Positions 41,964-55,465 of a DNA stretch of 64,000 nucleotides are shown here, piece by piece. This DNA comes from Alphaproteobacteria bacterium (GTDB lineage Bacteria; Pseudomonadota; Alphaproteobacteria; UBA9219), in the NCBI GenBank assembly GCA_041908065.1, contig JAYRGC010000050.1, forward strand, positions 21,718 to 85,717, read 5' to 3'. Position numbers and translations under genes: made by a program. The notes below the pieces were generated by a model. The model was given only the letters and a program-made list of their open reading frames with translations. It made no database searches and was not told the origin of the DNA. The stretch's first letter is position 1. Every line of letters begins with the position of its first letter.

Positions 41964-42087
41964 AAGTGTTTCCAAATCGTGTAAACAGCGCCTCTTTATT
42001 CGCACAAAATGCCGATTATCTAGTTGATAATAAAGGCAGAAAGAGCGTTAATAGGAGTGTAAAAAGAACCCCGTTTAGGAGGACGCC

Positions 42088-42399
42088 ATGAGCAAGAAAC
42101 TGGTCTACAAAGCCCTCGCCGACGATGCCAGCCGCACGGAAAAATGCTCCGATGAACATCTCGCGATTTTTATAGCGATCTTTGAACACGCCGTGAAATC
42201 GACCGACGGCATCATGGCGGACAGAGCCTGTTTCGACTTGTCGAACTTCGCCATCGCCAAGGAAGGCGGTCTTGAGCGCTTCCGGCTCACGCTGGAGAAA
42301 GACTGCATGAACCGCAGGGACGAGTGGTGCGGCACTTTCGCGCACGGCATGAAAACCCTGAAAGTGTTCGCTGCCTTGGAAGAGGAGAAAGAATTGTGA
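42088..42399 (+). CDS. Paralog 1 of a tandem triplicated ~100-aa protein family (unknown function)
   Basis: AGGAGG RBS; aligns with the next two ORFs (Cys near aa 19-20, F.LT.E, EW.G.F motifs). Confidence 0.6.
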   Translation: MSKKLVYKALADDASRTEKCSDEHLAIFIAIFEHAVKSTDGIMADRACFDLSNFAIAKEGGLERFRLTLEKDCMNRRDEWCGTFAHGMKTLKVFAALEEEKEL

Positions 42400-42431
42400 G
42401 GCGATAAAACCGTCTGAAAAAGGAGAGCAAA

Positions 42432-42740
42432 ATGAACAGGAAAGAGTTTTGGATCCCCACGGTCGACGATGTGCAGAACGAGGGGTGCAGCGAGTTGGAG
42501 AGAGAGGTTCTTCTCGACATCTTCGAAAGCAAGATGAAAGAGATGGCATGCACGGCGCTTGACAAAGGGGTCTACCAATCCATCGACACTTTCTTCCTCG
42601 CCCAAAAGAACGAGGTCAAGGGCTTCGCTCTCACGATGGAACGTTACCCGCATGCGGGATTCGAACAATGGATCGGCGTGTTCGAGGCCGATGCGAAACG
42701 GATGAGAGCCTTCGGAACTTTGGTGGAGCCGACCGATTGA
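42432..42740 (+). CDS. Paralog 2 of the tandem triplicated family
   Basis: GGAGAG RBS; FALTMERYPHAGFEQWIGVFEADAKRMRAFGTLVEP. Confidence 0.6.
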   Translation: MNRKEFWIPTVDDVQNEGCSELEREVLLDIFESKMKEMACTALDKGVYQSIDTFFLAQKNEVKGFALTMERYPHAGFEQWIGVFEADAKRMRAFGTLVEPTD

Positions 42741-42775: not shown

Positions 42776-43078
42776 ATGGAAAAGCAAATTTACAACATCG
42801 CAGACCATTACGACCTGAAAAATAGGGGGTGTACTGACAAAGAAATCGACGGCCTTTGCGAAATCTTCGAACGCCTGATGTTGGAACAAGCCAACGGATC
42901 GCTCCGCAAGGGCGTTTATGATCTGAAGGACTTTGAAAGCGCCGCACCTCTTAAGATCGCGGACTTTACCCTGACGATGGAGCGCCGCGACCATCCAGAC
43001 GGCCCAGAATGGAAGGGCGTGTTTGAAGCCGAAGGCCGCTCAATGGAGGTTTGGGGAACGGTCGAGCCAGCCGCTTAA
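42776..43078 (+). CDS. Paralog 3 of the tandem triplicated family
   Basis: GAGGGAGG RBS; FTLTMERRDHPDGPEWKGVFEAEGRSMEVWGTVEP. Confidence 0.6.
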   Translation: MEKQIYNIADHYDLKNRGCTDKEIDGLCEIFERLMLEQANGSLRKGVYDLKDFESAAPLKIADFTLTMERRDHPDGPEWKGVFEAEGRSMEVWGTVEPAA

Positions 43079-43156
43079 TCGCAACCGACAATTTAACCGA
43101 AGCCGCCGCCCGCGAGGGTTGGCGGCTTTTTCTTTGCTCAAACGAAAGGACGTGTC

Positions 43157-43819
43157 ATGACGAACAAAACGCCCCCGCGCGGCATCCGCAACAACAACCC
43201 CGGCAACCTGCGCCGTACCAAAGACCCGTGGCAGGGATTGGCAAAAGAGCAGACGGATCCCGAGTTCTTCACATTCGAGAATCCGGTTTATGGCATCCGC
43301 GCGCTGGCGCGCGTGCTGATCGCTTATCAGGATGACCGTGGCCTTCGCACCATCCGCCAGATCATCGGTCGTTGGGCTCCCGCCACCGAAAACGACACGG
43401 CTGGCTATATCGAGTCTGTCGCCAAATCCACCGGCTTCGCGCCCGATCAAACGCTCGACTTGCACGCCTACGCCGACCTGAAACCCCTTGTCGAAGCCAT
43501 CATCCAGCACGAAAACGGCCAACAGCCCTACACGGGCGCACAGATCGACAAAGCTTTGGTTCTGGCAGGTGTGGAGCCTCCGGCCAAGAACCTGCAACAC
43601 ACGCGCACTGTAAAGGGCGGAAAGGCCGCCACGGCGGCAACCGTGGGCCTTGGGGCGCTACAGGCCGTGCAGGACGGCCTCGCGCCCGCCCGCGACACGC
43701 TCCAAACGCTCGTGCCGTATCTGGACGTTGCCAAATGGCTGCTTCTGGCCATCACGCTGATCGGTATCGGCGTGATGATCTGGGCGCGAATCGACGACCA
43801 CCGGAAAGGGCTGCGCTGA
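43157..43819 (+). CDS. Putative endolysin / cell-wall hydrolase with C-terminal membrane anchor
   Basis: Sits immediately upstream of the Rz/Rz1 pair; GIRNNNPGNLR motif; C-terminal TM helix WLLLAITLIGIGVMIW. Confidence 0.4.
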   Translation: MTNKTPPRGIRNNNPGNLRRTKDPWQGLAKEQTDPEFFTFENPVYGIRALARVLIAYQDDRGLRTIRQIIGRWAPATENDTAGYIESVAKSTGFAPDQTLDLHAYADLKPLVEAIIQHENGQQPYTGAQIDKALVLAGVEPPAKNLQHTRTVKGGKAATAATVGLGALQAVQDGLAPARDTLQTLVPYLDVAKWLLLAITLIGIGVMIWARIDDHRKGLR

Positions 43820-44058
43820 TGTTTGCCATCCTCACAAGCTGGCTGTCCAGCAACATGCTCAAAATCATCGGTTGGGGAGCGATTGCCGCGTCAGTAGCCG
43901 CCGTCCTCTTCGGTGCGCGCCAGTCAGGTCGTACCGCCGAACGCTACGACCAACTTAAGAAAATCGTGGAGGTGAAAAATGCTCAGTTACGCGCAGCAAT
44001 GGACGCTCCTCGCACTCGCGCTGACCTTGTTAAGCGCCTGCGGGACGGCAAGTTCTAA
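43819..44058 (+). CDS. i-spanin (Rz-like)
   Basis: N-terminal TM (MFAILTSWLSSNMLKIIGWGAIAASVAAVLF) then coiled coil; ATGA-coupled to the endolysin; o-spanin gene embedded in its 3' end. Confidence 0.6.
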   Translation: MFAILTSWLSSNMLKIIGWGAIAASVAAVLFGARQSGRTAERYDQLKKIVEVKNAQLRAAMDAPRTRADLVKRLRDGKF

Positions 44059-44212
44059 CCCCGCCTGCGTCTGCCCGCCGATCAAGGCGTACAGCAAGGA
44101 ACAACAGATCAAGCTGGCCGTCGAGATCGAAGCCGCGCCGCCCGATGCGACGTTTCCGAATGTTGTGCAAGACTACGCCGTGCTGCGCGCGCAACTGCGC
44201 GAGTGCAAATGA
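43979..44212 (+). CDS. o-spanin (Rz1-like outer-membrane lipoprotein), embedded/overlapping
   Basis: Lipobox LLSAC at residues 17-21, Cys- and Pro-rich mature part; overlaps the Rz 3' end in another frame. Confidence 0.6.
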   Translation: MLSYAQQWTLLALALTLLSACGTASSNPACVCPPIKAYSKEQQIKLAVEIEAAPPDATFPNVVQDYAVLRAQLRECK

Positions 44213-44421
44213 TCGAGACGAAGGGGAAGGCGTTGAGATTGCTTGGGACACTTGAGCCGGAGGGGTGAGCAGTCGCCCCCACATCATTTTTCCTGTCAGG
44301 CCGCCCGCGATGAAACGCCGGAGGCTTTTTCTTTGACCAAAACCACAGGATATGGCATTGCGATCACAGAAAACCTTTAAAGTAGTGCAAGCTTTTATCC
44401 AGTGAAGGGGCACGGTAGCAA

Positions 44422-44727: not shown

Positions 44728-44735
44728 ATGACGAC

Positions 44736-45033
44736 TTCAGGCTAACGATCGAAAAACACCTCAACGCCGGAGCCGAACAATGGATCGGCATTTTCGTGGC
44801 CGAAGGTAAGAATCTGCGCTCCTCGCACTCGCACTCGCGCTGATCTCGTTAAGCGCCTGCGTAACGGCAAATTCTAATCCCGCCTATGTCTGCCCGCCAA
44901 TCAAGGAATATAGCAGGGAGTTTTAGGAGAGGCTTGCGGCAGAGGTTGAATCCGCACCTGAAGGTTCAGCGTATCCTGAAGCGCTTATGGATTACGGCGT
45001 CCTTCGAAATCAGGTGTCATTATGTCAGTAAGT
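44736..45033 (+). pseudogene. Decayed remnants: C-terminal fragment of a fourth paralog (44736-44841) fused to a degenerate copy of the Rz-3'/Rz1 region (44815-45033)
   Basis: FRLTIEKHLNAGAEQWIGIFVAEGKNL matches the paralog C-terminus; the next ~210 bp are ~75% identical (by eye) to 43995-44212 with an in-frame TAG. Confidence 0.55.
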
Positions 45034-45046: not shown

Positions 45047-45658
45047 CTATGGTTCGCAAAGAGTACCGTTTTTGAAAGTCCGCACATTTTTTCTTTCAAA
45101 GAGACTCTCTACTCGTTGGATGGCTGCTAGGATGCTCGTCGTTTTGCTCTGAATCGTTTGCGTGACTAGGTGGTTGTCACCGTATCGTGAAATGATCTCG
45201 TCAAGACGCTCCTGAGCGCTGAGGTTTTGGCCCTCTGGCCCTGTGGTCATATCAGAAAACAGAAGTGCATCAGATGCATTAGAGCCTTCATTCGGAAAGG
45301 CGCTGAGACACTGTTCGAATCCGCGCAATTCGGCCTCGGAAGCTGCACAGGAATGATGTGCGACAAGTGCCGTAACACGATCCTCAAACCCTTCCTCCAA
45401 AAGCCATCGCGCCCCATCCAAGGGATGAAATTGGGTTTTGGCTATGTCTGGAGCGTATCCTATGTCATGAAGCCACGCGGCTACAGTCAAAACTCGAGCC
45501 TCGTCGGCATCGAATAAAATGGCCCCGATCTTTTCGGCTTTTGCCGCTACCGCTTGGACATGAAGCCAGCGTTTTGGCAACGGGGTCTCCAAATGATCTC
45601 GTGCAATCCGCCGAGCCTCCTCTACAGAACACACCTTTCGACTGCCTTTTTGCATCAT
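45047..45658 (-). CDS. HD-domain metal-dependent phosphohydrolase/oxygenase-family protein
   Basis: H...HD...H...H...D pattern (WLHVQAV, WLHDIGY, ALVAHHS); start uncertain (45658/45655/45721). Confidence 0.55.
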   Translation of the reverse strand: MMQKGSRKVCSVEEARRIARDHLETPLPKRWLHVQAVAAKAEKIGAILFDADEARVLTVAAWLHDIGYAPDIAKTQFHPLDGARWLLEEGFEDRVTALVAHHSCAASEAELRGFEQCLSAFPNEGSNASDALLFSDMTTGPEGQNLSAQERLDEIISRYGDNHLVTQTIQSKTTSILAAIQRVESLFERKNVRTFKNGTLCEP

Positions 45659-45683
45659 TTTCTCATTTACTCGCGCCCATGAA

Positions 45684-46340
45684 CTAATGGGATGCATCAG
45701 ACGCATACTTGTAATCGACAATCCAGTAGTAGGAAAGACGTTTAATGTTTATATCCGTTGCGATTCCTTTGAGTATATCCTTGAACTCCTGATCGCTCGG
45801 GAAATTTTTAAGAACCTCATGCTCGCTTCCGTCTGGCAGCTTGCGGGTTTGGTATGTATTGCCGCCGTCATCTGTTCTGGTGATGGGGTGGTTGCTGCCC
45901 TCAACATAGTGGTTGTCTATGAAAACGACTGTGGCTCCATGTTCCAGCTTCGAATGAAAAACATCTAAGAAACTTTTTATCTTTGCCCTTGGAATATGTG
46001 ACCACCAAAACCCAGCAAATCCCGCCGTGAATTTTCCGGAAACCTTTGAAAGCGAGTACGCGTCTTCTTGCATGAATCGTGCATTGGGCAGGTTCTTCTC
46101 TTGGGCGATTTCTAGAACTTCTGCGCTTTGATCTGTGCCCAAGATGGATGCAGCCGTTTTTGCACGCTCTGTCCAGTAACCGGTTCCGCAAGCGATTTCT
46201 AATACGTCATGCCCATTCAAGATTTTTTGTAACTCAAGGGAAAGATTTGCAAGATCCTCTTGTCTTTCCGGCTTTTCGTAGATTTTTTCATAAACTCGTG
46301 CGCGGCGGTTGTAATATTCCTTCAGGGCTTCATCGTTCAT
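45684..46340 (-). CDS. Class I SAM-dependent methyltransferase
   Basis: Motif I VLEIACGTGYWT, motif post-I ILGTDQS, motif II ARFMQEDA. Confidence 0.7.
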   Translation of the reverse strand: MNDEALKEYYNRRARVYEKIYEKPERQEDLANLSLELQKILNGHDVLEIACGTGYWTERAKTAASILGTDQSAEVLEIAQEKNLPNARFMQEDAYSLSKVSGKFTAGFAGFWWSHIPRAKIKSFLDVFHSKLEHGATVVFIDNHYVEGSNHPITRTDDGGNTYQTRKLPDGSEHEVLKNFPSDQEFKDILKGIATDINIKRLSYYWIVDYKYASDASH

Positions 46341-46379
46341 TTTTCATCTCCTTTTGCGGGGCAGGGTTTGAGCACTTTA

Positions 46380-47813
46380 TCACCCAAACCATAAAACAGA
46401 TACCGTTTTAACATTCGTATAAAAGCGCATAGCTTCTACCAATCCTTCTTTGTGACCCAATCCTGATCCCTTAACCCCGCCGAATGGCGACATTTCCGTA
46501 CGAAAACTAGGCACTTCTCCAATGTTGACGGATCCAACACGCAGTCTTTTGATGAATTGTAAGGCAGATGGCCAATGGCTCGTGCACACACCGGCGCTCA
46601 ACCCGAACTCCGTTCCATTGACGATACGTATCGCATCTTCGTTGGTCTTGAAACGAATTATGGGAGCAACCGGACCAAACGTTTCTTCTGCGACGAGGGT
46701 GCTTGCAGGAGAGACATGGTCAAGCACCGTCGGGTGATATAAGGCTCCTTGTCTTTTGTGTCCCAAAAGAAGTTTGGCACCATCCTTAATGGCTCCATCG
46801 ACCCTTTTTTCAATTTGGCGAGCGGAATTCTCGTCTATTACCGTTCCGACATCTGTTTCTTTATTGGAGGGATCTCCGCAAACTAGCTTTGCCGCACGTC
46901 CTACAACCTTGTTAACGAAATCATCTGCTTTTTCTTCTGCCACTAAAATCCGTTTTATGGCTGTACAACGTTGTCCAGAGTTTCCAAACGCGCCGCGCAC
47001 AGCAAGGTCGGCAGATTCATCTAAATTGGCGTCGGGAAGAACAATAAGCGCATCATTGCCTCCCAATTCAAAAAGGAGCTTTTTATACGAGGCTTTCTGG
47101 GCCAGAATCTTGCCTACAGCGGTGCTTCCTGTAAAAGCCAAGACTTCTACGTCTTTGCTCTGCACAAGTTCATCGGCCATTTCAACGGCTGGACCTGTCA
47201 CTACTGACAACATTTCCGGAGGTAGGCCGGATTCATGAAGTATCTTTGCAAAGCGATATGCGGAAAGCGGGGTTTTTTCCGACGGTTTCAAAATTACACA
47301 ATTATTCGTCGCAACGCCGGGAGCAACTTTATGTGCAACCTGACAAAGGGGATGATTGAAAGGAGTTATTACCCCAATAGATGTGACGGGTTCACGGAAG
47401 GTTAGAATTTTTCTTGTCTTCCCGTCACGATTGACATCTCCTGCATAAATATCTGCATCTTCCTGCAGACATAAAGCACTCGCAAAAGTCAAAACGTCCT
47501 GTGCGCGACAAACTTCGTTCTTTGCATCCTTCCAGCAAAGTCCCGTTTCAGCGATAACCAATTGGGCCAGATCTTCTGCGCAATCTTCCATTAATTGAGC
47601 CGCTTTTGAAAGAATTCGGCTGCGTTCGTGACGTGTTAATCCGGCCTCATAGTTTGCGGCAACATCGATAGCCTTCTGTATTTGCTCACGAGAAGCGGAA
47701 GAAACTTCCCCAGTTAACCCCTTTGTAAAGGGGTTATAGACGGATATGCGGTCAGTCGTTTCAATCTGATTGCCGCCAATAAGCAACGGTTCATAGTATG
47801 ATTGGTTCACCAT
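46380..47813 (-). CDS. NAD(P)-dependent aldehyde dehydrogenase (candidate phosphonoacetaldehyde dehydrogenase, PhnY-like)
   Basis: Catalytic Cys context GQRCTAIKRILV and Glu FELGGNDA; ATG MVNQ preceded by AAGGAG (the ORF-track M upstream is TTG). Confidence 0.7.
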   Translation of the reverse strand: MVNQSYYEPLLIGGNQIETTDRISVYNPFTKGLTGEVSSASREQIQKAIDVAANYEAGLTRHERSRILSKAAQLMEDCAEDLAQLVIAETGLCWKDAKNEVCRAQDVLTFASALCLQEDADIYAGDVNRDGKTRKILTFREPVTSIGVITPFNHPLCQVAHKVAPGVATNNCVILKPSEKTPLSAYRFAKILHESGLPPEMLSVVTGPAVEMADELVQSKDVEVLAFTGSTAVGKILAQKASYKKLLFELGGNDALIVLPDANLDESADLAVRGAFGNSGQRCTAIKRILVAEEKADDFVNKVVGRAAKLVCGDPSNKETDVGTVIDENSARQIEKRVDGAIKDGAKLLLGHKRQGALYHPTVLDHVSPASTLVAEETFGPVAPIIRFKTNEDAIRIVNGTEFGLSAGVCTSHWPSALQFIKRLRVGSVNIGEVPSFRTEMSPFGGVKGSGLGHKEGLVEAMRFYTNVKTVSVLWFG

Positions 47814-47838
47814 TTCGATCTCCTTAAAAATCAATTAC

Positions 47839-48999
47839 TCATTCGCCACCAGTACCTGAAGGACATTCGAGTTTGTTTGTTCTTATTGCTGCCTTCAAAG
47901 GTCGTTTTGCCGCATAGGCTGTAAGTGCTTCATCTACAAAACCATGAAGTTGAGCAAGCCCATGATTAGAGTGGACATCAATGCCATGTAATCCGACTTT
48001 TTTATGCAGTCTCTCGATGCCTGACTCGAGATTGCAAACCGGTCCACAAACTATTGGCGTGGTGTATCCCCACTCTTTAAGAAAATGCATTGCACCAAAC
48101 GCCCCCAAAGCATCATTTGCCGAAAGAACAACGAGGGCAACATTTTGCCGAAACTCAGGTTTTATTAAAGCTTCTGGTATGCCCGCCCAAATGATATCTC
48201 CTCCGGCCTCTGCCACAACGACATCTGTGTCTAGAGATGCGGCCCGTATTACGTCGACGGCTACATTTCCGGCTCTATTTGAATCGCCATAAGTTGAAGG
48301 CAGGCCCATATCAACAAAATCAACTGCGCGGATGGCTCCGCCATCTTTTAAGTGTGCAATGTCACGCAGCCGACCGGTTCCGCTGATTTTTGCAGCGCCA
48401 ACCCGATGGAATTTCGATAGGTGTTCTATTATTCGGCGAGTAACCGTGGTCTTGCCGCATTCTGAAGACGTTCCAACAACCATGACAACGGGGGAGATCA
48501 AGTCAGCCTTGGCCTTTGAATTCAACTGGAGCAAATTCATATTCTTGCCGTTCTCATTTAGGATGCCCAACAGTCTTACACGAGCAGCCGGAATGGGCTG
48601 AACCTTGGCTGCAGCATTGCGGCTGTAAGAAGGATATGAGGTGCAGATCCCGACTCCTCCAGCATTTGCCAAAATATCGGCTTCACCCGGAATAGCGAGG
48701 CCTCCCTCTGGGACATGCCCGACGAGAGACACACCAGAATCTCTGTGGCAAACCGTTCCGATGAATCTTTCGCCCTTTTTCAAATCGTGCAGACTGACAT
48801 CCGAGCGTTCAATGGCTGTAATAGCCCCCTTTTCAGACAGCATTTCTGCAACTACTAAATCGCCTTCGTTGGCCTTACCCTCAACTAAAGAAGCTGCCTT
48901 AACGCGGGCAACTGCTTCTTGGCTCCGAAGGTTTGAAGGAAAAACATCAATTTTAATATCCGCCACGCGAACGTCTTTTTTAGAAATGTCATTTTGCAT
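47839..48999 (-). CDS. Uncharacterized P-loop NTPase (DUF1611/CobQ-BioD-like fold)
   Basis: Walker A VVGTSSECGKTTV at mid-protein; start ATG MQND after AGGAAA. Confidence 0.4.
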   Translation of the reverse strand: MQNDISKKDVRVADIKIDVFPSNLRSQEAVARVKAASLVEGKANEGDLVVAEMLSEKGAITAIERSDVSLHDLKKGERFIGTVCHRDSGVSLVGHVPEGGLAIPGEADILANAGGVGICTSYPSYSRNAAAKVQPIPAARVRLLGILNENGKNMNLLQLNSKAKADLISPVVMVVGTSSECGKTTVTRRIIEHLSKFHRVGAAKISGTGRLRDIAHLKDGGAIRAVDFVDMGLPSTYGDSNRAGNVAVDVIRAASLDTDVVVAEAGGDIIWAGIPEALIKPEFRQNVALVVLSANDALGAFGAMHFLKEWGYTTPIVCGPVCNLESGIERLHKKVGLHGIDVHSNHGLAQLHGFVDEALTAYAAKRPLKAAIRTNKLECPSGTGGE

Positions 49000-49025
49000 A
49001 AGTTCTTTTCCTTTCAACAGTTGTA

Positions 49026-50057
49026 CTATCCCACATCAAATGTGCCGATTTTCTTGGGTCTAAACCATCTTACGGGTCTGAAGCTTTTCTCCAGTTCATG
49101 GTCCACACCAAGAATCAAGGAGAACAGAGCCATCCTGATAAGCAAGCCATTGTCGGTTTGCTTGAAAATTACCAGTCTGGGATCCCCATTAAGGTCCGTG
49201 CTTAAATCATATGCATCGGACCTGCTGTCGCGTGGCAAAGGATGCATGATGACCACGTCATCTTTTGCGTACGCCTGCACGATGTTTTGCTTAATTTGGT
49301 GATTTGGCCTCAGGCTTGTGATTAGATTTTGCTCTTCAAGCCGTTCTTTTTGAAGCCTAGTTGCGTAAATAACATCTGCAACCTTAAGCCCCTCCTCAAG
49401 AGTCCCCGCCTCGGTAAAGGAGTGTCCAAATTTAGATGCATATTTGATGACTTCTTGTGGAAGGCCAAAATGTTCGGGATGAACAAGAACGTATTTTATG
49501 TCCTTGTATAGGCACATAAGATAAACAAGCGAGTGAACAGTGCGGCCATACTTCAGATCGCCGGTAAGAGCGATTGTCGAGCCATCAACAGGTTTTCCTC
49601 TTTTTTCGAGTTCCTCTTGAAGCGTGTAAACATCCAGCAGTGCCTGCGTCGGATGCTCTTCAGGCCCACTCCCTCCATTGATAACGGGAATGTTTGTGGC
49701 ACTGCAAAATTCCTTTATTGCAGCCGGATCTGGGTGACGGATCAGGATGATATCGTAAAATCCACTCGTTACCCGACTCGTGTCAAAATAAGATTCTCCC
49801 TTAACAATTGAGGTAATGCCTTCTCCTTGAGTGTGGGACACGGCTCCACCGAGACGCATGAAGGCCGCATCGAAACTCAACCGCGTTCTTGTGCTGGGTT
49901 CAAAGAACATGCTGCCCAGCACGGCTCCGCGCAAAATGTCTGTGCAGACATCTCCCGTCGCTATAGGCTTAACGAGTTTGGCAAGTCTGAACAATTCGTC
50001 CAAATCTTCTCTGTCGACGCTTTTTACCGAAAGAAAATGTTTGCCTAAGAATCCCAT
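49026..50057 (-). CDS. Aspartate/ornithine carbamoyltransferase-family protein (ATCase/OTCase fold) with C-terminal extension
   Basis: Carbamoyl-phosphate-binding STRTR (FFEPSTRTRLSF), HPTQ (HPTQALLD), HPLP (IMHPLPR) motifs. Confidence 0.65.
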   Translation of the reverse strand: MGFLGKHFLSVKSVDREDLDELFRLAKLVKPIATGDVCTDILRGAVLGSMFFEPSTRTRLSFDAAFMRLGGAVSHTQGEGITSIVKGESYFDTSRVTSGFYDIILIRHPDPAAIKEFCSATNIPVINGGSGPEEHPTQALLDVYTLQEELEKRGKPVDGSTIALTGDLKYGRTVHSLVYLMCLYKDIKYVLVHPEHFGLPQEVIKYASKFGHSFTEAGTLEEGLKVADVIYATRLQKERLEEQNLITSLRPNHQIKQNIVQAYAKDDVVIMHPLPRDSRSDAYDLSTDLNGDPRLVIFKQTDNGLLIRMALFSLILGVDHELEKSFRPVRWFRPKKIGTFDVG

Positions 50058-50070
50058 GGTCAGCTCCGTT

Positions 50071-51225
50071 TCAAGGCGTGAATTTCGAGCTAAAGGATAC
50101 CATGTGTTCCCTAAACATTAAAGCGCGCTCAGGGAGATCAAGTTTTGGCCTTTCCACAACCTTTATGGTTAACGGTGCGATCCTAATATGTAAAAAATTA
50201 GGGCCGTCAAAAGGATCAATTGAATGCAGCGCTTCTTTTACAGCTTCTTTGCCAGAGCAAGACCAAACAGAACGATAGCCGCAAGAGAGGGCAACGCCGG
50301 AGAAATCCACCGCATTCGCATTGCTGGGTTGTCCACCAGTTGACTCGAAGATGCCGTTATCGAGCACGACATGGGTAAGATTGCGGGGGGACATTTTCCC
50401 GATGGTTGCGCAGTTTCCCATTTTCATGAGCAATGCGCCGTCACCGTCTAACACGGTGACGGGGTGTGCGCAGTTCATCGCGACGCCCAATCCAATTGCC
50501 GAAGCGTGCCCCATTGAACCAGCCATATAAAAATTGTTGGCCTTATCATGGCATTTGTATGCTTCACGATACGCATAACCGGTCGTCGCAATGACTGCGT
50601 GATTGCTAAACTCCTCCATGATTTGGGCTATGGTAGAGGCTCTATCTCCAATAGGCCCAGCAGTTACGCGTTTCACCGTTGGTCTTTCTCCCGAGGAAAT
50701 TAGAGAGGGCATTGTGCTCTGCGTTTTCGCATTCTCGATAGTCTTGGGATTTATCAAAAACGCTCGGCTATTCCTGTCGGCGAGTTCCTGTTTTGCGCAT
50801 CTCATCTCAGCAAGAGCATCTAGCCATTCACATGGCAGAACGGTTGTTTTAACTCCAAGTAGCTCCAAGAGCGGGCCGGAAGTTCTTCCCATAATCTCGT
50901 GCTGGGCCTCATCCTTAAATCCAACTGCGCCGCGCATAGAGATAAATAATGACACGGGTATCTGGTAGGGTTGGCAAAGAGACGCTATAGGATTCACCAT
51001 GTTTCCAAGACCTGAATTTTGACAAATCACTCCTGCTTGTTTTCCGGCCAGCCAGTATCCGGCAGCAATTGCACAAGCTTCTCCTTCCGTGGTTGCCGGT
51101 ATGTACCGAAGTAAATCTGTCGTTTCCAGATCTTTAAAAACAGACGACAAATTGGAACATGGCACTCCAATCAGAGCAGCATGATTCTGAGCTACCACTT
51201 CGATGAAATCCTCCGATTTGATCAT
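50071..51225 (-). CDS. ppd: Phosphonopyruvate decarboxylase (TPP-dependent)
   Basis: ~384 aa, TPP-enzyme pyrimidine- and PP-binding halves, ATGA-overlapped with the PEP mutase gene as in ppm-ppd cassettes. Confidence 0.6.
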   Translation of the reverse strand: MIKSEDFIEVVAQNHAALIGVPCSNLSSVFKDLETTDLLRYIPATTEGEACAIAAGYWLAGKQAGVICQNSGLGNMVNPIASLCQPYQIPVSLFISMRGAVGFKDEAQHEIMGRTSGPLLELLGVKTTVLPCEWLDALAEMRCAKQELADRNSRAFLINPKTIENAKTQSTMPSLISSGERPTVKRVTAGPIGDRASTIAQIMEEFSNHAVIATTGYAYREAYKCHDKANNFYMAGSMGHASAIGLGVAMNCAHPVTVLDGDGALLMKMGNCATIGKMSPRNLTHVVLDNGIFESTGGQPSNANAVDFSGVALSCGYRSVWSCSGKEAVKEALHSIDPFDGPNFLHIRIAPLTIKVVERPKLDLPERALMFREHMVSFSSKFTP

Positions 51226-52106
51226 GGCATTAGTTCCTTTGGTTTTTGTTGTCTGTTGTATTTTCTTTCCTCTGATGGCAGTAAATCCATGCCAGTGAGG
51301 GACAGCACTTCCTTGACGGTTACCATGTTTGAAACACCGCGTGGATCTTGTTGTTCAAGTAACTCTCTTGACGCATTTTTTAAGGCCAAGATTTGCGCAC
51401 GCAGAAGCTGATTGGCCCATATGATACCTTTGACGCTTTTCAATCGCGGAATAACAGGAGCGATAGAGCTATAGTAAGTCGTGGGGACAATCACGATAGG
51501 ATTTGGTTTATCCCAGTCTTCTATAAAACGAACGATATCAGACGCTTCTTTAGATTTCGAGTGAATCAGAATTGCGTCGGCACCTGCTTCTGCATAAAGA
51601 TTGGCGCGTTCTTTAGCTACATCAAGGCCTTGTCCTACGATTAAAGCCTCAACCCTGGCGACAAGAAACATGTCGTTTCCGAGCGCATCTTTTATGGCCC
51701 GTATCTTTCCGCAGAAAGTTTCCTTGTCTTCGAGCTCTTGACCTGCGGACATGAGAGAGTTTCTCTTCGGAAAAACCTGATCCTCAATGGATATGCCTGA
51801 GGCCCCAGCTTTGAAAAGTTTCTTGGCAAAGAACCGAGCAATATTGAAATCGCCATGCCCATTATCTCCATCGACAAGGATAGCGGCTTGTGTTGCGGAG
51901 GCGATGTTCTCTGTCGCAGCGACGACCTCGGCCCAAGACAATTCTCCAAAATCACGACGTCCTTGAACGGTGCTTAATCCCAGGCTTGAGACCCAAATGG
52001 AATCAAAGCCAGCCTGTTCTGCGACTATAGCCGACAGCGCATCATGGCATCCAATAATGTATGTCGGGGCCGTATTCGACAACTGCGTTCTCAATAAATT
52101 TGTCAT
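51222..52106 (-). CDS. ppm: Phosphoenolpyruvate phosphomutase (ICL/PEPM superfamily)
   Basis: WVSSLGLS, ILVDGDNGHG (DxD), and IEDQVFPKRNS spacing E-x5-K-x-N-S as in PEPM active site rather than ICL KRCGH; AAGGAGG RBS. Confidence 0.7.
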   Translation of the reverse strand: MTNLLRTQLSNTAPTYIIGCHDALSAIVAEQAGFDSIWVSSLGLSTVQGRRDFGELSWAEVVAATENIASATQAAILVDGDNGHGDFNIARFFAKKLFKAGASGISIEDQVFPKRNSLMSAGQELEDKETFCGKIRAIKDALGNDMFLVARVEALIVGQGLDVAKERANLYAEAGADAILIHSKSKEASDIVRFIEDWDKPNPIVIVPTTYYSSIAPVIPRLKSVKGIIWANQLLRAQILALKNASRELLEQQDPRGVSNMVTVKEVLSLTGMDLLPSEERKYNRQQKPKELMP

Positions 52107-52146
52107 TTTATCCTCCTTAAAATTAACGATTCAGATTTTGTTACAC

Positions 52147-52920
52147 TTAACCGAACATGGGGTTTGAAAACGTGAGGCATCGTCCTGCGGACAACCTCCC
52201 ACAAAGCTCCCCCAATGATCCCCCTTTATTGGCAGCAGACAAAAACGATGGAAGGCCTGCTACGACAACATCCACAAATGGATATCCGGTTCTCTCTCTT
52301 TTGTTGTCTACGATAAGCGCTGTCCACATCCCACATTTTTTGGAATAAAAAAGGTTTTCAGGCGTATCATCGACCATGATTGTTCTGGCAGCAGAGGCCT
52401 TCATCTGAGACAGCACATATGTAAAGGGGGCGATGGAATCTGATTTCCTTTGGAACCCAATTTCTTCCAATGTGAAAATAGATTCGTCTGGAAAATAGTT
52501 TTTGATACCAAGCGTGTTGAGAACCCGTGTTGCCCAAGACCTGTTTCCGTGAGTAAGCATCGCGCACGGAATGTTGAGGGTAGAGAATAGAGCAGGAAGA
52601 TCGCCCCTGCTTAAAACATTCTCTTCCTGCAAGCGATTGTGATAAGAGCGATGTAGCTCAGTCAGCGAAATGCCGCATGCTGTGAATGCCTCGTAATACG
52701 TTTTATGCTTTTTACGCGAGGCAAGAGCCATTTGTCTTGCTTGTTTTTCAGTCAGCAACGGGACAAGATCCATAGCTACTTGTGTCGCCACGCTAAAACA
52801 ATGATTTTGAAAGACAGGCGTGTCTTCAAACATGACTCCATCGTTGTCGAAAACGATTAGGTCTATCTTCTTGCTTGTACAAGAAGAACTGTTCTTAGAA
52901 ATTTCGTTCGACTGCATCAT
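52147..52920 (-). CDS. HAD-superfamily hydrolase/phosphatase
   Basis: Motif I LIVFDNDGVM (DxDG), first gene of the operon after an AT-rich promoter region. Confidence 0.6.
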   Translation of the reverse strand: MMQSNEISKNSSSCTSKKIDLIVFDNDGVMFEDTPVFQNHCFSVATQVAMDLVPLLTEKQARQMALASRKKHKTYYEAFTACGISLTELHRSYHNRLQEENVLSRGDLPALFSTLNIPCAMLTHGNRSWATRVLNTLGIKNYFPDESIFTLEEIGFQRKSDSIAPFTYVLSQMKASAARTIMVDDTPENLFYSKKCGMWTALIVDNKRERTGYPFVDVVVAGLPSFLSAANKGGSLGELCGRLSAGRCLTFSNPMFG

Positions 52921-53154
52921 TTACCCTCCAGTAGCACCAAGGTTATCTCAAACAGACAGCTTATCCAACAAACAATCATAGTTAACAGTTTGATTTATAA
53001 TCAATTATCGCCCTTTTGGGTTTTGGATTTTTGCCGAAAACCACCATATTGAGTATCTAAACTCGTTTTTTTCCATCAAGTTGTTCCTTTTCGCCATTCT
53101 CCGTCTATTTTTTCGTACCTTCCCAATTTAGGAAGGTGACTCCGTTTTCTTCCA

Positions 53155-53667
53155 CTACAGCAATGACCGGCTGTTATATTTTTCCCGCCCCACCTTCGCC
53201 GTTTCATCGTGTTCGTTTCTGATCTCTTCTGAAACCAGAACGCGATGGGCTGCCTCAACCAGCGAACGGACAAGGTTGCTCTGTCCGCCGGACGTTCTGA
53301 AAAATGTTTCCTTGCTCATGAAGCGGCGGTTTTGACATTGCTCCGGCCATGTGGCTGCTTCGCCTGCCATGCGTCCAACAAAAACGATTGTTTGCGCGAT
53401 TTCGTTCTGCCGACCCTTGGTCTTGATGGCCGTGACGGGCTTCACGAGGCCGAGGGCGATGTTTGCGCTCTCGAAAACCTCGCGCCGCGCTGCGGCCTCG
53501 GCATCGTCGTCGTCCCATTCCACACATCCGCCAGGAAGGACAAAGCGGTTTTTGTTCTTGATCGCCAGCACGCAATTTTGATCGTCGAAAACAACGATTT
53601 TGACGTATTCGATTTCCTCTGCGTTCAGCGATTGCTCGGGAACAAAACAAGGATTTGTGTTAAGCAT
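53155..53667 (-). CDS. NUDIX hydrolase
   Basis: Nudix box GGCVEWDDDDAEAAARREVFESANI; GGGAGG RBS before ATG MLNTN. Confidence 0.7.
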   Translation of the reverse strand: MLNTNPCFVPEQSLNAEEIEYVKIVVFDDQNCVLAIKNKNRFVLPGGCVEWDDDDAEAAARREVFESANIALGLVKPVTAIKTKGRQNEIAQTIVFVGRMAGEAATWPEQCQNRRFMSKETFFRTSGGQSNLVRSLVEAAHRVLVSEEIRNEHDETAKVGREKYNSRSLL

Positions 53668-53932
53668 AACGCGCCTCCCGTTCATAATAGGAGCCGATGC
53701 CGTTCTCTCTGCACCGAAGCTCAATGACGGCCAGCGCATTGGCGAAGTGCCAAAGGGCAGCTACATCCTGATGGGCAAAGCCCAAGGCAAGAAGGTCTTG
53801 CTGCTCGCAGTTGCCGATCTCCAGTGTCATCTCAACGATTGTGTCAGCCATGCGAGCCACCGGTTCAAATCTCTTATCCGTTTCAGAGGTGATCTGATCG
53901 ACGATGCGGCGGTATTTGATTGCTTTAGCCAC
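53660..53932 (-). CDS. Hypothetical protein
   Basis: Overlap-coupled ORF within a minus-strand operon. Confidence 0.35.
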   Translation of the reverse strand: MAKAIKYRRIVDQITSETDKRFEPVARMADTIVEMTLEIGNCEQQDLLALGFAHQDVAALWHFANALAVIELRCRENGIGSYYEREARYA

Positions 53933-54332
53933 GGGGCGCCTCCCTGATTTCAGGGATGGAAGCCATTACGCGAACAACGCCTGTGTACGAAAGAGCCAAC
54001 GTATGACCGGTCGGGTCGCAACCGGCAGGGATCGTAATGGCCGTCTCATAACGGACAAACTGGATGCCTCGACGGGCAAAGGTCGTAACAAGCGTCTCCA
54101 TTGTCGATTTTTGCGGGATGTATACTCCGTGCTCGATGTTTTTGATCGTTTCCGCAGATATCTTTGCTTCTTTGGCAAGATCGCTACGTGACCAATCGAG
54201 CATGCTGCGCGCGGCACGCAGTTGCGAGGCCGTGAAAACGCAGGACATGATCGCGTACATGGGGCCGGACGGCGTACCGACGTCAGAATTGTTTTTGGCG
54301 TTCGTCGGATCAAAAGGCGGCTTGGAAATCAT
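53925..54332 (-). CDS. XRE-family HTH transcriptional regulator
   Basis: TASQLRAARSMLDWSRSDLAKEAKISAETIKNIEHG; GGGAGGA RBS, ATGA coupling to the upstream gene. Confidence 0.6.
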   Translation of the reverse strand: MISKPPFDPTNAKNNSDVGTPSGPMYAIMSCVFTASQLRAARSMLDWSRSDLAKEAKISAETIKNIEHGVYIPQKSTMETLVTTFARRGIQFVRYETAITIPAGCDPTGHTLALSYTGVVRVMASIPEIREAPRG

Positions 54333-54763
54333 TGGTATCCTCCCGCTTTTCTGTCCTCAATTTCCTCATCGAGATAACGCAGCACCAGATCGGCCAGTTT
54401 CTCTACTGAAGCTTCCGCATAGAACAGCCATTGTTTCCGACGCACCTTGCGCTGCTGGAGGCGGTCATAAAACTGGATGAGTGTTTCCCGATCTTCGGGC
54501 AAATGCGTCTGTTCACGCTTTTGCAAATCTTCGATGTGCATGTTGATCGCGGCGTCGATCTTCGTTGCCCACTTGTCTTCAGCAAGATCGATGGTCTGCT
54601 CAGGAAATGTTCGCTGAAGGTGAAAATCGCAAAACTCGTCCATGAGTCTGGCGAGGGCGATTATTTTATTAACGGACTCCTTCGATCTTCCGTTCTCGCC
54701 GTGCGTAATCATGCTCTGAAACGCCAGCATGAGGGCCATGCGCATTTGTTCGTCTTTAGTCAT
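54329..54763 (-). CDS. Hypothetical protein
   Basis: GGAGG RBS before ATG MTKDEQ. Confidence 0.4.
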   Translation of the reverse strand: MTKDEQMRMALMLAFQSMITHGENGRSKESVNKIIALARLMDEFCDFHLQRTFPEQTIDLAEDKWATKIDAAINMHIEDLQKREQTHLPEDRETLIQFYDRLQQRKVRRKQWLFYAEASVEKLADLVLRYLDEEIEDRKAGGYQ

Positions 54764-55052
54764 GACAGCCTCCGATAACCAAGGCCTGTGGCCAGAAGCG
54801 CGACAACAAACGCGCAAATCGCTCAATCGTATTCAATTCGCGTGTGGAAGGCTGAGGGAGCGGGGAATTGGCGAGATAAAGGAAAGTGATCCCATGCATC
54901 TTGACGGCCTGCGTAAACGCATCGCGCTCGGTATCAGATGCGAAATTGTCTTGAATGATCTCAAGGACAGTGGCCTCTGAACATTCTGGACGGGCCATCA
55001 GTGCCTGCGCCTTGGCGAGAGGCAATGCGATTGCTGTGTTGTCGTTCGTCAT
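54756..55052 (-). CDS. Hypothetical protein (start uncertain)
   Basis: ORF continuing the operon; weak RBS. Confidence 0.25.
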   Translation of the reverse strand: MTNDNTAIALPLAKAQALMARPECSEATVLEIIQDNFASDTERDAFTQAVKMHGITFLYLANSPLPQPSTRELNTIERFARLLSRFWPQALVIGGCHD

Positions 55053-55099
55053 AAAATGCTCACTGATGTCGTTGATCAATGAGGCGAGTATCAATATCT

Positions 55100-55215
55100 C
55101 CAACGCGTGATTCCACAGGAGAATTTGGACTTTTTGCCCATATTCAGGGGGGCAATTTGGACGAATTTCTAATTTGGACTTTTTGATCAAAATTTTGGAC
55201 TTTTTTCCTGATAAA
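55100..55215. promoter_or_regulatory. Four direct repeats of (A)ATTTGGAC(T)TTTT in an AT-rich intergenic region
   Basis: aatttggactttttg / caatttggacgaattt / taatttggactttttg / aaattttggactttttt. Confidence 0.5.
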
Positions 55216-55465
55216 AAATAGGCTGGCGGCGTGACCGCATGAAAGAATAGGCGATGATCGTTTGAAACGGCAATTTCAGAGAGAACACTCAACACGACAA
55301 AAAGCAATCGCCGTTTTTATCAGGCGATCCCTTTTTTCTTGGCACTTTTAATCAGATGAAAAGATGTGTGGGAGGATAGCGCGATATCCGATTGGTTCTT
55401 GGCAGCTCCATGCCTTGACAGGTACAGGCAAAACCGAGGTGCTTTAACTGCACAGAAAAGGCGGT

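Follow-up and report, generated by a model that had tools for sequence, protein, structure and literature searches.

The prophage and its accessory region

The window, a 64,000-nucleotide stretch of DNA from an uncultured alphaproteobacterium, contains one 54-kb prophage with identical copies of a 46-nt direct repeat at its two ends. On the plus strand, attL (7141-7186) is the 3' part of a tRNA-Thr(CGT) gene (7111-7185), and attR (61151-61196) is the second copy of the repeat; a third copy was looked for and none was found. A CI/LexA-like (S24) prophage repressor (7377-8027, minus strand; phrog_811, phrog_4) lies just inside attL. Phage replication, packaging, head and tail modules follow on the plus strand (9940-41444), comprising a Sak4-like annealase (9940-10815), helicase (11434-13098), primase (13953-16202), DNA methyltransferase (18327-19706), large terminase TerL (22329-24218), portal (24421-25959), protease (25956-27164), major head protein (27905-28921), tape measure (32066-34606) and tail protein (36493-39696). 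The single tyrosine integrase of the element (59458-61020, minus strand) is 36% identical to the integrase of a Bdellovibrionales element. The temperate phage is apparently complete.

Between the tail genes and the integrase, in an accessory slot, lies an operon of eight genes on the minus strand (45047-52920), antisense to the late phage genes. A NUDIX hydrolase gene (53155-53667) and a gene for an HTH_19/XRE-type regulator (53925-54332), both upstream and on the same strand, may be part of the operon unit; the kfp cluster of Kitasatospora fiedleri likewise has a NUDIX gene at its end. The rest of a conserved accessory arm (54329-59051, no strand assigned) encodes a hypothetical protein (54329-54826; 46% identical in a Bdellovibrionales metagenome-assembled genome, MAG), an HTH-like protein (55466-56236), an HTH_3 protein (57355-58035) and an EgtD-like methyltransferase (58032-59051).

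This arm might be regarded as a separate integrative island in tandem with the prophage, and not as phage cargo: its GC content is distinct, and the integrase, regulators and cluster are kept as a block in the Bdellovibrionales MAG, the contig of which ends after the methyltransferase gene, so that the phage nature of that locus lies beyond view. However, the 54-kb element has just two att copies and one integrase, no degenerate internal att was found within it at up to 3 mismatches, and repressor and integrase sit at opposite ends, as in lambdoid prophages. We therefore consider an island quite improbable and keep the placement of the operon inside the prophage made by the initial annotation.

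Architecture and composition of the operon

All eight ORFs were present at the coordinates given here. Three become shorter when likely ATG starts are used (P-loop protein, 47839-48999; aldehyde dehydrogenase, 46380-47813; HD protein, 45047-45655), and these match the genes called independently on a 10.9-kb contig of identical sequence. The genes are tightly spaced, with intergenic gaps of 40, -4, 13, 26, 25, 39 and 28 bp, the -4 gap being an ATGA overlap of ppm stop and ppd start, and Shine-Dalgarno motifs of the AAGGAG/GGAGG type precede nearly all starts, which bears out the co-directional operon with strong ribosome-binding sites described initially. Its AT-richness was also borne out: GC is 0.471 in the cluster compared with 0.586 in the remaining prophage and 0.58-0.60 in the host flanks, and GC3 is 0.41-0.48 compared with 0.69-0.81 outside. 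A promoter-like TTGATT-18-TATGAT (52975-53004, minus strand) in the 234-bp NUDIX-HAD gap is weak evidence of a promoter, since site counts in the scan were no higher than in shuffles.

Core phosphonate enzymes

Domain and homology searches agreed with all eight initial domain assignments. The PEP phosphomutase (Ppm; 51222-52106, minus strand) scored 257 bits with the PEP-mutase profile, 153 with phosphonopyruvate hydrolase and 121 with methylisocitrate lyase, and its best solved relative is the Mytilus PEP mutase; the scores thus favour a PEP mutase over a methylisocitrate lyase, the alternative raised initially. Its motif, IEDQVFPKRNS, is an EDQ variant of the canonical EDK-x5-NS, and its score falls slightly under the curated equivalog cut-off. 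The TPP-dependent phosphonopyruvate decarboxylase (Ppd; 50071-51225, minus strand) exceeds the TIGR03297 cut-off (337.5 over 312.5), whereas acetolactate synthases, the other family considered for it, reach only about 20 bits. The PhnY-type phosphonoacetaldehyde dehydrogenase (ALDH; 46380-47813, minus strand) scored 621 bits with TIGR03250, slightly under the cut-off of 636, with the next family at 427; against the solved PhnY, 4I3T, it scored 477 bits, with the next at 291. Strong homology thus supports the predicted route from PEP to phosphonoacetate that had been proposed from the outset: Ppm would convert PEP to phosphonopyruvate, Ppd would drive the reaction onward to phosphonoacetaldehyde, and the dehydrogenase would oxidize this to phosphonoacetate.

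Related clusters in other genomes

The combination of ALDH, ATCase-like enzyme and methyltransferase, singled out initially for comparison, recurs in order in the Bdellovibrionales MAG, where the same integrase arm accompanies a six-gene core with the gene order kept (identities: Ppm 62%, Ppd 55%, ATCase 57%, P-loop protein 30%, ALDH 67%, methyltransferase 49%). More widely, the Ppm-Ppd-PhnY-P-loop set, with or without ATCase, occurs in Pseudomonas, Nocardia, Streptomyces/Kitasatospora, Clostridia (including a MAG) and CPR bacteria, among them Saccharibacteria. In a survey of 25 loci with a P-loop gene, which extended to further lineages, the families travelling with it were ALDH in 19, Ppm in 18, Ppd in 13 (with split forms in addition), TauD in 13 and ATCase in 12; no partner of phosphonoacetate synthesis is more constant than the P-loop enzyme. 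In the kfp cluster, kfp06 is the P-loop protein and kfp15 is annotated 'PyrB'; phosphonate production was proven there by pepM deletion and 31P NMR, with the product structure unsolved (PMC12723261). No product of any family member was known in the literature searched.

The cluster in the window has no exporter, whereas in kfp an MFS transporter adjoins 'PyrB' and the Pseudomonas version carries an additional TauE/SafE-family exporter; in both genera the same core is chromosomal, while here it is on a prophage. We place the operon, a compact cluster carried by a phage, in a widespread, uncharacterised family of phosphonoacetate small-molecule clusters; the family was already known, and the phage location is new. 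The initial reading of an undescribed phosphonate small molecule as end product holds, and a phosphonoacetate-derived small-molecule cluster on a prophage is very probably what the operon represents.

The initial annotation also considered a phosphonylated cell surface. Surface modification is a common type of lysogenic conversion, and a phosphonate placed on a glycan or lipid could alter the surface of the lysogen and its phage receptors. Many Ppm clusters do decorate cell-surface glycans or lipids with phosphonate (PMC8942020), and the 24 IMG/VR contigs with Ppm, Ppd present or absent, may be of this type. However, no AEP transaminase or other aminotransferase, cytidylyltransferase or other nucleotidyltransferase, glycosyltransferase or CDP-alcohol phosphatidyltransferase is found in or near the operon, the PhnY branch ends in phosphonoacetate, and related clusters carry small-molecule exporters. 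We regard a phosphonoglycan or phosphonolipid as the most improbable of the explanations weighed here.

P-loop protein, methyltransferase and hydrolases

The rare two-domain P-loop protein (47839-48999, minus strand) combines an N-terminal beta-rich domain with an ATPase domain resembling dethiobiotin synthetase (DTBS) and DUF1611, and falls in a phosphonate-specific clade with the signature K204..GTGR210xR212D. We lean slightly towards an ATP-dependent ligase acting on phosphonoacetate, that is, a candidate phosphonoacetate-activating amide ligase; the fold yields the reaction class, and substrate and amine partner are beyond its reach. The methyltransferase (45684-46340, minus strand) was at first thought to have no counterpart in characterised phosphonate pathways, a view that we revise: its best solved relative is 3OU2 (E 2e-15), which is DhpI of dehydrophos biosynthesis, both proteins having 218 aa, and it is probably a DhpI-like phosphonate O-methyltransferase. 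The same was said of the ATCase and the P-loop protein; these do recur with Ppm, Ppd and PhnY, including in kfp, and the claim stands in so far as no role has been assigned to them. The HAD-IA phosphatase (52147-52920, minus strand), first gene of the tight operon, is weakly pyrimidine-5'-nucleotidase-like, and the HD/HDIG-domain metal-dependent hydrolase (45047-45655, minus strand; 202 aa from ATG), its last, yielded no solved relative in a sequence search.

Several of these genes are nucleotide-related, and phosphonoacetate or its methyl ester might act inside the lysogen as a pyrophosphate analogue that poisons the DNA polymerases of superinfecting phages, with ATCase, HAD, NUDIX and HD as nucleotide-pool genes and with ATCase and the P-loop enzyme compensating where phosphonoacetate competes with carbamoyl phosphate. 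Inhibition of viral DNA polymerases by phosphonoacetate is known, going by the references listed in PMC12288639; the prophage encodes helicase and primase, and its scanned ORFs yielded no identifiable DNA polymerase; the lack of an exporter in the cluster would also suit an intracellular agent. Against this, PADLOC defence models gave only a generic methyltransferase-domain match (mad2) for the methyltransferase and a marginal Cas3 HD-domain match, the chromosomal Pseudomonas and Kitasatospora cores with exporters fit a secreted metabolite, and the constancy of the P-loop enzyme is left unexplained. Such an exclusion function appears improbable.

Aspartate carbamoyltransferase

The enzyme encoded mid-operon is the one classically inhibited by phosphonoacetate derivatives, a link absent from the initial annotation and, chemically, the most revealing one. 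Since ATCase usually occurs as a single-copy gene, its linkage to these clusters is far above chance; N-phosphonoacetyl-L-aspartate (PALA) and phosphonoacetamide are its classical ligands, and cells become resistant to PALA through amplification of the CAD gene, which contains ATCase. The catalytic chain in the window (49026-50057, minus strand) scored 278 with TIGR00670 (cut-off 237) and keeps every residue contacting carbamoyl phosphate, aspartate and PALA; the 15 positions involved in catalysis or PALA contact are all kept in every cluster-linked ATCase-type copy. From these residues we propose that it is an ordinary, active enzyme. It is most closely related to solitary chromosomal ATCases, one of them 60% identical and thus closer than the other cluster copies, and ATCase is absent from 13 of the 25 phosphonate-clade loci surveyed (some cut by contig ends), where the P-loop and ALDH genes are kept. 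Occurrence in no more than about half of the clusters, together with this kinship, fits an accessory immunity gene. A target copy has a precedent in a phosphonate cluster, namely lumazine synthase in the flavophos cluster (bioRxiv 10.64898/2026.01.15.699783). That the cluster product targets ATCase and that the gene serves immunity is nevertheless put forward tentatively, at somewhat less than even confidence.

The ATCase may instead be biosynthetic, paired with a P-loop protein that makes an acyl phosphate, either carbamoyl phosphate (as a new type of carbamate kinase) or phosphonoacetyl phosphate, the acyl group then being moved to aspartate; the product would contain ATCase-made N-carbamoyl-aspartate or N-phosphonoacetyl-aspartate. 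The DTBS fold phosphorylates carbamate in its own mechanism. P-loop relatives also adjoin transcarbamoylases outside phosphonate contexts: in a Roizmanbacteria arginine operon (ArgG-Ploop-OTCase-ArgH-M20), where no carbamoyl-phosphate source was visible, and in Daviesbacteria, where M20-Ploop adjoins ATCase, both without Ppm. Saccharibacteria, which generally lack de novo pyrimidine synthesis, keep ATCase beside the P-loop gene, in the orders HAD-Ploop-ATCase and ATCase-Ploop-Ppm-Ppd-ALDH, with HAD genes adjoining the pair in two loci. This adjacency without Ppm and the Saccharibacteria case are easier to reconcile with a biosynthetic partnership than with immunity. However, the active site is wholly canonical, down to the parts that grip the carbamoyl NH2 (Q137 and the HPLP loop), and no room for a phosphonomethyl group was seen in it, a point against phosphonoacetyl transfer; the P-loop proteins linked to OTCase fall in a clade of their own, without the two phosphonate-clade arginines; and the patchy occurrence and solitary-ATCase kinship described above also count against the pairing. 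We judge it unlikely, while giving it more weight than any other alternative.

Proposed product and role

The best overall explanation, to which we give an even chance, is a secreted phosphonoacetate amide antimetabolite with ATCase as target-copy immunity. The DTBS-like enzyme would phosphorylate the phosphonoacetate carboxylate at the expense of ATP and join it to an amine: ammonia would give phosphonoacetamide, a C-P isostere of carbamoyl phosphate, and L-aspartate would give PALA or a similar compound. Neither was found as a natural product in the literature searched. The DhpI-like enzyme might methylate the phosphonate, a form of masking also seen in dehydrophos and fosfazinomycin, and the HAD, HD and NUDIX hydrolases might act on phosphorylated or nucleotide-linked intermediates. 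The secreted product would mimic carbamoyl phosphate or the ATCase transition state, and the embedded ATCase, as an extra target copy, would render the producer immune to it. Given its place in the accessory region between tail genes and integrase, its antisense orientation relative to the late genes and its own regulators, the operon can be viewed as a candidate lysogenic-conversion module, by which lysogens would make an antimetabolite against the pyrimidine, and possibly arginine, synthesis of competitors; if so, the phage may make its host both a producer of the antimetabolite and immune to it.

An eight-gene operon of distinct base composition

All eight minus-strand open reading frames described in the initial annotation, which had proposed a prophage-borne phosphonate biosynthesis operon, are present in the window, and overall its observation was confirmed and its interpretation supported with corrections. 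The genes encode, from first to last, a HAD protein (52147-52920), PEP phosphomutase (Ppm; 51222-52106), phosphonopyruvate decarboxylase (Ppd; 50071-51225), an aspartate carbamoyltransferase (ATCase; 49026-50057), a P-loop protein (47839-48999), a PhnY-type phosphonoacetaldehyde dehydrogenase (ALDH; 46380-47813), a methyltransferase (45684-46340), and an HD protein (45047-45655). Each is read from the ATG that agrees with separate gene predictions for a metagenomic contig of 10.9 kb with identical sequence. Gaps between genes measure 13-40 bp, apart from the ppm/ppd junction, where stop and start share 4 bp (ATGA), an overlap that couples ppm genetically to the equilibrium-pulling enzyme. Shine-Dalgarno-like sequences (AAGGAG/GGAGG) precede almost all starts. 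The GC content of the cluster is 0.471, versus 0.586 in the remaining prophage and 0.58-0.60 in the host flanks, and its GC3 values (0.41-0.48) are likewise below those of phage and host genes (0.69-0.81).

Upstream on the same minus strand lie a NUDIX gene (53155-53667) and a gene for an XRE-type regulator (53925-54332), parted from the HAD gene by a 234-bp gap that contains one promoter-like site. In a promoter and terminator scan of the region, promoter-like sites were no commoner than in shuffled sequence, that is, not above chance. Between the tail genes and the cluster, small minus-strand open reading frames contain paralogous repeats (42623-42691, 42964-43032, and 44735-44803; 44009-44139 and 44828-44958). 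Small open reading frames at 42016-42549, 43040-43600, and 44030-44413 matched no PHROG or NCBIfam family, and two of them, also scanned against Pfam, matched nothing there.

A single temperate prophage as carrier

An exact 46-nt direct repeat (7141-7186 and 61151-61196), the first copy of which is the 3' end of tRNA-Thr(CGT), bounds the element as att sites, with a CI/LexA-like repressor gene (7377-8027, by PHROG profiles) inside attL and a tyrosine integrase gene (59458-61020) inside attR. PHROG profiles further identified a Sak4-like annealing protein, helicase, primase, and DNA methyltransferase, as well as large terminase, portal, head protease, major head protein, tape measure, and tail protein. 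The element thus has the features of a temperate prophage: att repeats including a tRNA 3' end, integrase, repressor, and complete replication, packaging, head, and tail modules. No third att copy was found in the window, even with three mismatches allowed, nor was a second integrase, which indicates a single 54-kb lambdoid-style prophage; a separate tandem island was rejected for lack of an internal att site. On sequence grounds, the operon is phage cargo: it fills the slot between the tail genes and int where accessory genes classically lie, and its transcription runs antisense to that of the late genes. When the cluster and the structural module were compared by megablast with 50,697 deposited phages, neither gave a match, and the phage is without a close relative among them. 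The host is an alphaproteobacterium not yet in culture; its MutL shows at most 64% identity to any of 5.8 billion proteins, and its nearest entries are mostly from alphaproteobacterial MAGs.

Some other features of the element and its flanks were recorded. Between the primase and DNA methyltransferase genes (17786-18123), two blocks of a 10-bp-periodic ACATCATC(G/T)CAC-type repeat, with at least 12 copies, are probably the iterons of the phage replication origin. Adjoining the integrase gene, a plus-strand gene (58032-59051) encodes an EgtD/EasF-like SAM methyltransferase (Pfam Methyltransf_33; TIGR03438 at 88 bits, well below its cut-off), which is kept at the same place in a Bdellovibrionales element (L007 3635-4561; 25% identity). 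The host flanks (39-1200 and 62021-62260) have several short REP-like repeats in common, such as CGTCATTGCGAGCCGCC, TACGGCCAAAGGCCGTCAT, and GGATTGCTTCGCCGC, which look like a dispersed host repeat family.

Enzymes predicted to lead to phosphonoacetate

Ppm scored 256.6 bits on the PEP mutase model TIGR02320, compared with 152.7 for phosphonopyruvate hydrolase (PPH), 121.3 for methylisocitrate lyase, and 67.5 for CPEP mutase, a score that is below the equivalog cut-off of 319.55 and yet sides with the proposed PEP mutase against a methylisocitrate lyase. Its best solved relative is the Mytilus PEP mutase (206.6 bits, versus 140.6 for PPH). The active-site motif IEDQVFPKRNS is EDQ-x5-NS in place of EDK-x5-NS, the third position being changed from K to Q; the EDQ variant is common to the window and Bdellovibrionales enzymes, and EDK is found in orthologs from Pseudomonas, Saccharibacteria, and Streptomyces. 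Alignment with 1M1B showed conservation of the equivalents of D58, D85, D87, E114, K120, N122, S123, R159, and H190, which we take to be catalytic residues. Ppd combines the TPP N- and C-terminal domains in a single chain and exceeded the cut-off of TIGR03297 (337.5 against 312.5 bits), versus about 20 bits on acetolactate synthase models, so that the assignment of 50071-51225 as Ppd also stands. ALDH scored 621.3 bits on the phosphonoacetaldehyde dehydrogenase model TIGR03250 (cut-off 635.65), with the next family at 426.8, and its best solved relative is 4I3T, at 477 bits, with the next structure at 291. We take 4I3T to be the PhnY of S. meliloti; the segments RAxDV, FNHPL, GQRCTA, and FR.EMSPFGG are conserved between the two and were taken as the phosphonate-pocket Arg/His and catalytic Cys, as reportedly assigned in PhnY by Agarwal et al. 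in 2014.

By these profile and residue matches, the predicted chemistry is well supported as far as phosphonoacetate. Phosphonate catabolism was considered and rejected, because phnW, phnX, phnA, and C-P lyase genes are all lacking and Ppm and Ppd are translationally coupled.

A widespread family of phosphonoacetate clusters

Scanning genomes with a profile built from an alignment of 7 P-loop sequences yielded 80 loci. Co-travelling families, counted in 25 representative P-loop loci by a tblastn survey and ORF clustering, were PhnY-like ALDH (19), Ppm (18), Ppd (13, plus split forms), TauD (13), and an ATCase-type gene (12). Loci that bring together Ppm, Ppd, PhnY-like ALDH, and the P-loop gene, frequently with a copy of ATCase as well, form a family that takes in both the window cluster and kfp, a cluster known from Kitasatospora fiedleri DSM 114396, Streptomyces sp. 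MMG1121 (L035), and 31A4. Deletion of pepM-ppd and 31P NMR demonstrated that kfp directs the synthesis of phosphonates, the structure of which is unsolved (PMC12723261). Like the window, kfp has PepM, Ppd, a PhnY-like ALDH, and a NUDIX gene and is phosphonoacetate-derived. In the published gene table, kfp06 is a 'hypothetical protein' of 349 aa, kfp15 is 'aspartate carbamoyltransferase PyrB', next to the MFS transporter gene kfp14, and kfp25 is NUDIX (PMC12723261); none of kfp06, kfp15, and kfp25 is discussed in the main text of that paper. By synteny with the MMG1121 locus, kfp06 stands at the position of the P-loop homologue, and kfp15-type ATCases in the syntenic Streptomyces/Kitasatospora loci (L035, L017) are 50% identical to the window enzyme. 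Unlike the window, kfp is chromosomal, actinobacterial, and 25 genes long, with a split Ppd and with an ATP-grasp ligase, two TauD dioxygenases, a CysDNCQ/PAPS subcluster, an MFS exporter, an S9 peptidase, an aminotransferase, and a LuxR regulator; the phage-located window cluster has 8-9 genes, with a DhpI-like methyltransferase and the HAD and HD hydrolases in addition.

Pseudomonas fluorescens EK007-RG4 and Pseudomonas sp. RIT288 (L023, L022) carry Ppm-Ppd-Ploop-TauE-family exporter-ALDH-ATCase-TauD. As in the window, Ppm, Ppd, P-loop, ALDH (48%), and ATCase (50-51%) are gathered in one low-GC block; the gene order is different, however, a TauE/SafE-family exporter and a TauD dioxygenase lie within the block, the methyltransferase gene is on the opposite strand, and a phage context is not visible. 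No description of this Pseudomonas cluster was found in the literature searched. A proteobacterial MAG has Ppd-Ploop-ALDH-ATCase and a Clostridia MAG has Ppm-Ppd-ATCase-Ploop-ALDH, and further examples were found in Nocardia, Streptomyces/Kitasatospora, Saccharibacteria, and a DPANN archaeon. The Bdellovibrionales MAG contig L007 has a second mobile copy of the cluster and resembles the window in an entire arm: integrase (36% identity), the EgtD-like methyltransferase, HTH regulators, and a conserved hypothetical protein (46%) are followed, in the order of the window, by Ppm (62%), Ppd (55%), ATCase (57%), P-loop (30%), ALDH (67%), and methyltransferase (49%), after which the contig stops, with the phage nature of the element beyond view.

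GC content is 0.43 in the Pseudomonas cluster (L023 7790-15342), versus 0.52-0.57 in its surroundings, and 0.44 in the Bdellovibrionales cluster (L007 7953-14406), versus 0.50. A cluster AT-richer than its surroundings in these two and in the window fits repeated horizontal transfer, apparently out of a source of low GC content. The window locus is a new minimal phage-borne variant of this widespread, uncharacterised, multi-phylum family, and at 8-9 genes and ~8.5 kb the most compact version found; beside the 25-gene kfp, the only member studied, the window locus offers an attractive minimal system for heterologous expression.

A distinct family of P-loop proteins

The P-loop protein is rare: a word-indexed search gave 27 relatives, the best at 38% identity, and a profile search gave 864 cluster representatives at E<=1e-30 among 1.84 billion. 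A confident AlphaFold model based on 25 homologues (pLDDT 86.6, pTM 0.86) has a beta-rich N-terminal domain followed by a P-loop domain. The motif GT-S-S-E-C-GKTT, which we take to be close to that of dethiobiotin synthetase (DTBS), and an invariant downstream lysine (K204) accompany a nucleotide-binding-domain fold, features that place the protein among the dethiobiotin synthetase-like (SIMIBI) proteins. In dethiobiotin synthetase, CTP synthase, and formate-THF ligase, ATP phosphorylates a carboxylate, carbamate, or amide oxygen, and a nitrogen nucleophile then attacks. The protein scores too low for Pfam DUF1611 (PF07755, 16.3 bits against a cut-off of 25), and the modelled N-terminal domain is beta-rich, unlike the Rossmann-like N domain of DUF1611; the protein was therefore treated as belonging to a distinct family, that of the 864 representatives.

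A neighbour-joining tree of 83 homologues resolved three clades: an alphaproteobacterial clade, often beside a homologue of the window methyltransferase and without Ppm; a CPR clade beside OTCase-type genes; and a phosphonate clade including the window protein, in which Ppm, Ppd, and ALDH accompany almost every member with enough flanking DNA. Two conserved arginines beside K204, R210 and R212, occur only in the phosphonate clade and are what a phosphonate-binding site would need.

Homologues were also seen in several other settings. In a Roizmanbacteria locus (L078 7467-15097) one lies within an arginine operon (ArgG, P-loop, OTCase, ArgH, M20/ArgE-like, ArgS) in which neither carbamoyl-phosphate synthase nor carbamate kinase was seen, and three further loci (L056, L069, L086) have a similar context; this homologue is possibly a new enzyme related to carbamoyl phosphate. 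A homologue of the window methyltransferase (35-43% identity) forms a pair with the P-loop gene in Acetobacteraceae, Bradyrhizobium, and numerous alphaproteobacterial MAGs (loci L032, L038, L039, L043, L048-L050, L055, L067, L072-L074, L082, L085, and L091). No Ppm was found within 10 kb of these pairs, and the neighbourhood of L067 gave no functional clue. Fused family members (P0339, P0413, P0341, and P0366) have an extra domain at either end, either an alpha/beta-hydrolase related to LpqC and poly(aspartic acid) hydrolase-1 or an M20-like domain; P0413, the one hydrolase-fused protein that could be classified, is without the phosphonate-clade motif, and the fusions were given little weight.

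The in-cluster ATCase as a candidate immunity gene

The window ATCase scored 278 on TIGR00670 (cut-off 236.95), and its closest subfamily models are PRK11891 (437 bits) and PRK08192 (411 bits), both under their own cut-offs. In E. coli PyrB numbering, the carbamoyl-phosphate site (S52, T53, R54, T55, R105, H134, and Q137), the aspartate site (R167, R229, and Q231), the HPLP loop, and K84 of the neighbouring chain are conserved both in the window enzyme and in all the cluster-linked copies of ATCase type; a T aligns with position 80, and the 80s loop reads as shorter by one residue than that of the E. coli enzyme. Its nearest relatives are solitary chromosomal ATCases, one of which, at 60%, is closer than any cluster-linked copy, and the contexts of four close solitary enzymes (P0029, P0030, P0035, and P0060) contain no phosphonate genes.

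Among the possible roles, we rank first, tentatively and by analogy, that of a target-copy immunity gene, which seems plausible without being probable. The active site is fully canonical; only some half of the loci in the phosphonate clade have the ATCase; the kfp ATCase gene adjoins an exporter gene; and there is a precedent in the flavophos cluster of Burkholderia, in which an in-cluster lumazine synthase, a copy of the phosphonate-inhibited housekeeping enzyme, confers resistance. Flavophos differs from the window in its 2-phosphonomethylmalate branch, its target, and its not being phage-borne, and the relation to the target is experimental there, whereas it is deduced by comparison here. 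If the ATCase is indeed an immunity gene, the target of the whole cluster family is predicted in advance.

Ranked second, and rather doubtful, is that the ATCase acts as a biosynthetic partner of the P-loop enzyme. In favor of a partnership, the P-loop gene lies in ArgG-Ploop-OTCase-ArgH-M20 in Roizmanbacteria, where a source of carbamoyl phosphate was not seen; in Daviesbacteria it neighbours an ATCase gene, with Ppm absent within 18 kb; and HAD, P-loop, and ATCase genes stay together in Saccharibacteria, which are generally without pyrimidine synthesis. Were it true, the P-loop/transcarbamoylase pair, found also in CPR arginine operons, would represent new carbamoyl-phosphate enzymology. Direct phosphonoacetyl transfer by the ATCase is unlikely, the carbamoyl-NH2 pocket being unchanged and canonical.

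The predicted product and its possible meaning

The closest solved relative of the window methyltransferase is 3OU2/3OU6/3OU7 (E 2.3e-15, 60 bits, residues 7-194; next match E 6e-8), that is, DhpI, the phosphonate O-methyltransferase of dehydrophos biosynthesis. Both proteins have 218 aa and share the class I SAM fold, which makes methylation of a phosphonate likely. The HAD, HD, and NUDIX products are predicted to be generic hydrolases. [quoted passage not shown] NRRL F-525) and the fosfazinomycin branch, which uses methylated phosphonoacetate (PMC8942020). The O-PnAS route is proposed to proceed via nucleotide-activated NMP-phosphonoacetate (PMC12288639). Neither an ATCase nor a DTBS-like P-loop enzyme is reported for either pathway in the literature searched. 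The methylating enzyme of fosfazinomycin is FzmB.

What the product is, and what the P-loop enzyme and the ATCase do, we infer from these comparisons. One possibility, which we regard as speculative, is that the prophage encodes a natural mimic of carbamoyl phosphate or of the ATCase transition state, made by a new DTBS-like class of phosphonoacetate ligase, together with ATCase immunity. Such a mimic would be either phosphonoacetamide or an N-phosphonoacetyl amino acid of the PALA type, perhaps in the form of a methyl phosphonate pro-drug, and infection might convert a bacterium into an immune producer of an inhibitor of pyrimidine synthesis. PALA, a bisubstrate/transition-state analogue of ATCase, and phosphonoacetamide, the C-P isostere of carbamoyl phosphate, are classical ATCase ligands; both are phosphonoacetate amides known so far only from synthesis, and the residues they bind are all conserved in the cluster ATCase. 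No natural source of either compound was found in the literature searched, nor was anything relevant on ATCase in phosphonate clusters or on prophage-borne PepM.

The initial annotation had offered a phosphonylated cell surface as an alternative, and such decoration is unlikely, because no transaminase, nucleotidyl-, glycosyl-, or phosphatidyl-transferase gene is present. Chemical defence, in which free or methylated phosphonoacetate poisons the polymerases of incoming phages, is improbable, and it leaves the P-loop and ATCase genes unexplained. A known anti-phage defence system was rejected, PADLOC having given only a generic methyltransferase-domain match (mad2) and a marginal HD-domain match.

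As a class of antibiotics and herbicides, phosphonates are small in number and highly productive, and new scaffolds have tended to reveal new targets. The kfp06-type P-loop enzyme and the in-cluster ATCase, singled out here and undiscussed in the literature searched, are linked by one testable chemical hypothesis. If the mimic proves real, nature made the textbook synthetic inhibitor PALA, or close kin, first, and the operon would be the earliest known case of a phosphonate antibiotic pathway carried by a phage. Phage cargo that directs the synthesis of a non-ribosomal small-molecule antimetabolite would widen the scope of lysogenic conversion, adding to toxins, bacteriocins, and surface changes.

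Ppm genes on other viral contigs

Searching IMG/VR with the P-loop profile and with a single Ppm protein returned nothing. With a broader Ppm alignment, Ppm was found on 24 viral contigs (L095-L118, including a giant-virus MAG), five of which have an adjacent Ppd; ALDH, ATCase, P-loop, and methyltransferase genes were on none of the 24. Their PEP mutases, at 30-43% identity, probably belong to a different, AEP-type pathway, and virus-borne phosphonate synthesis of another kind seems to be under-described.
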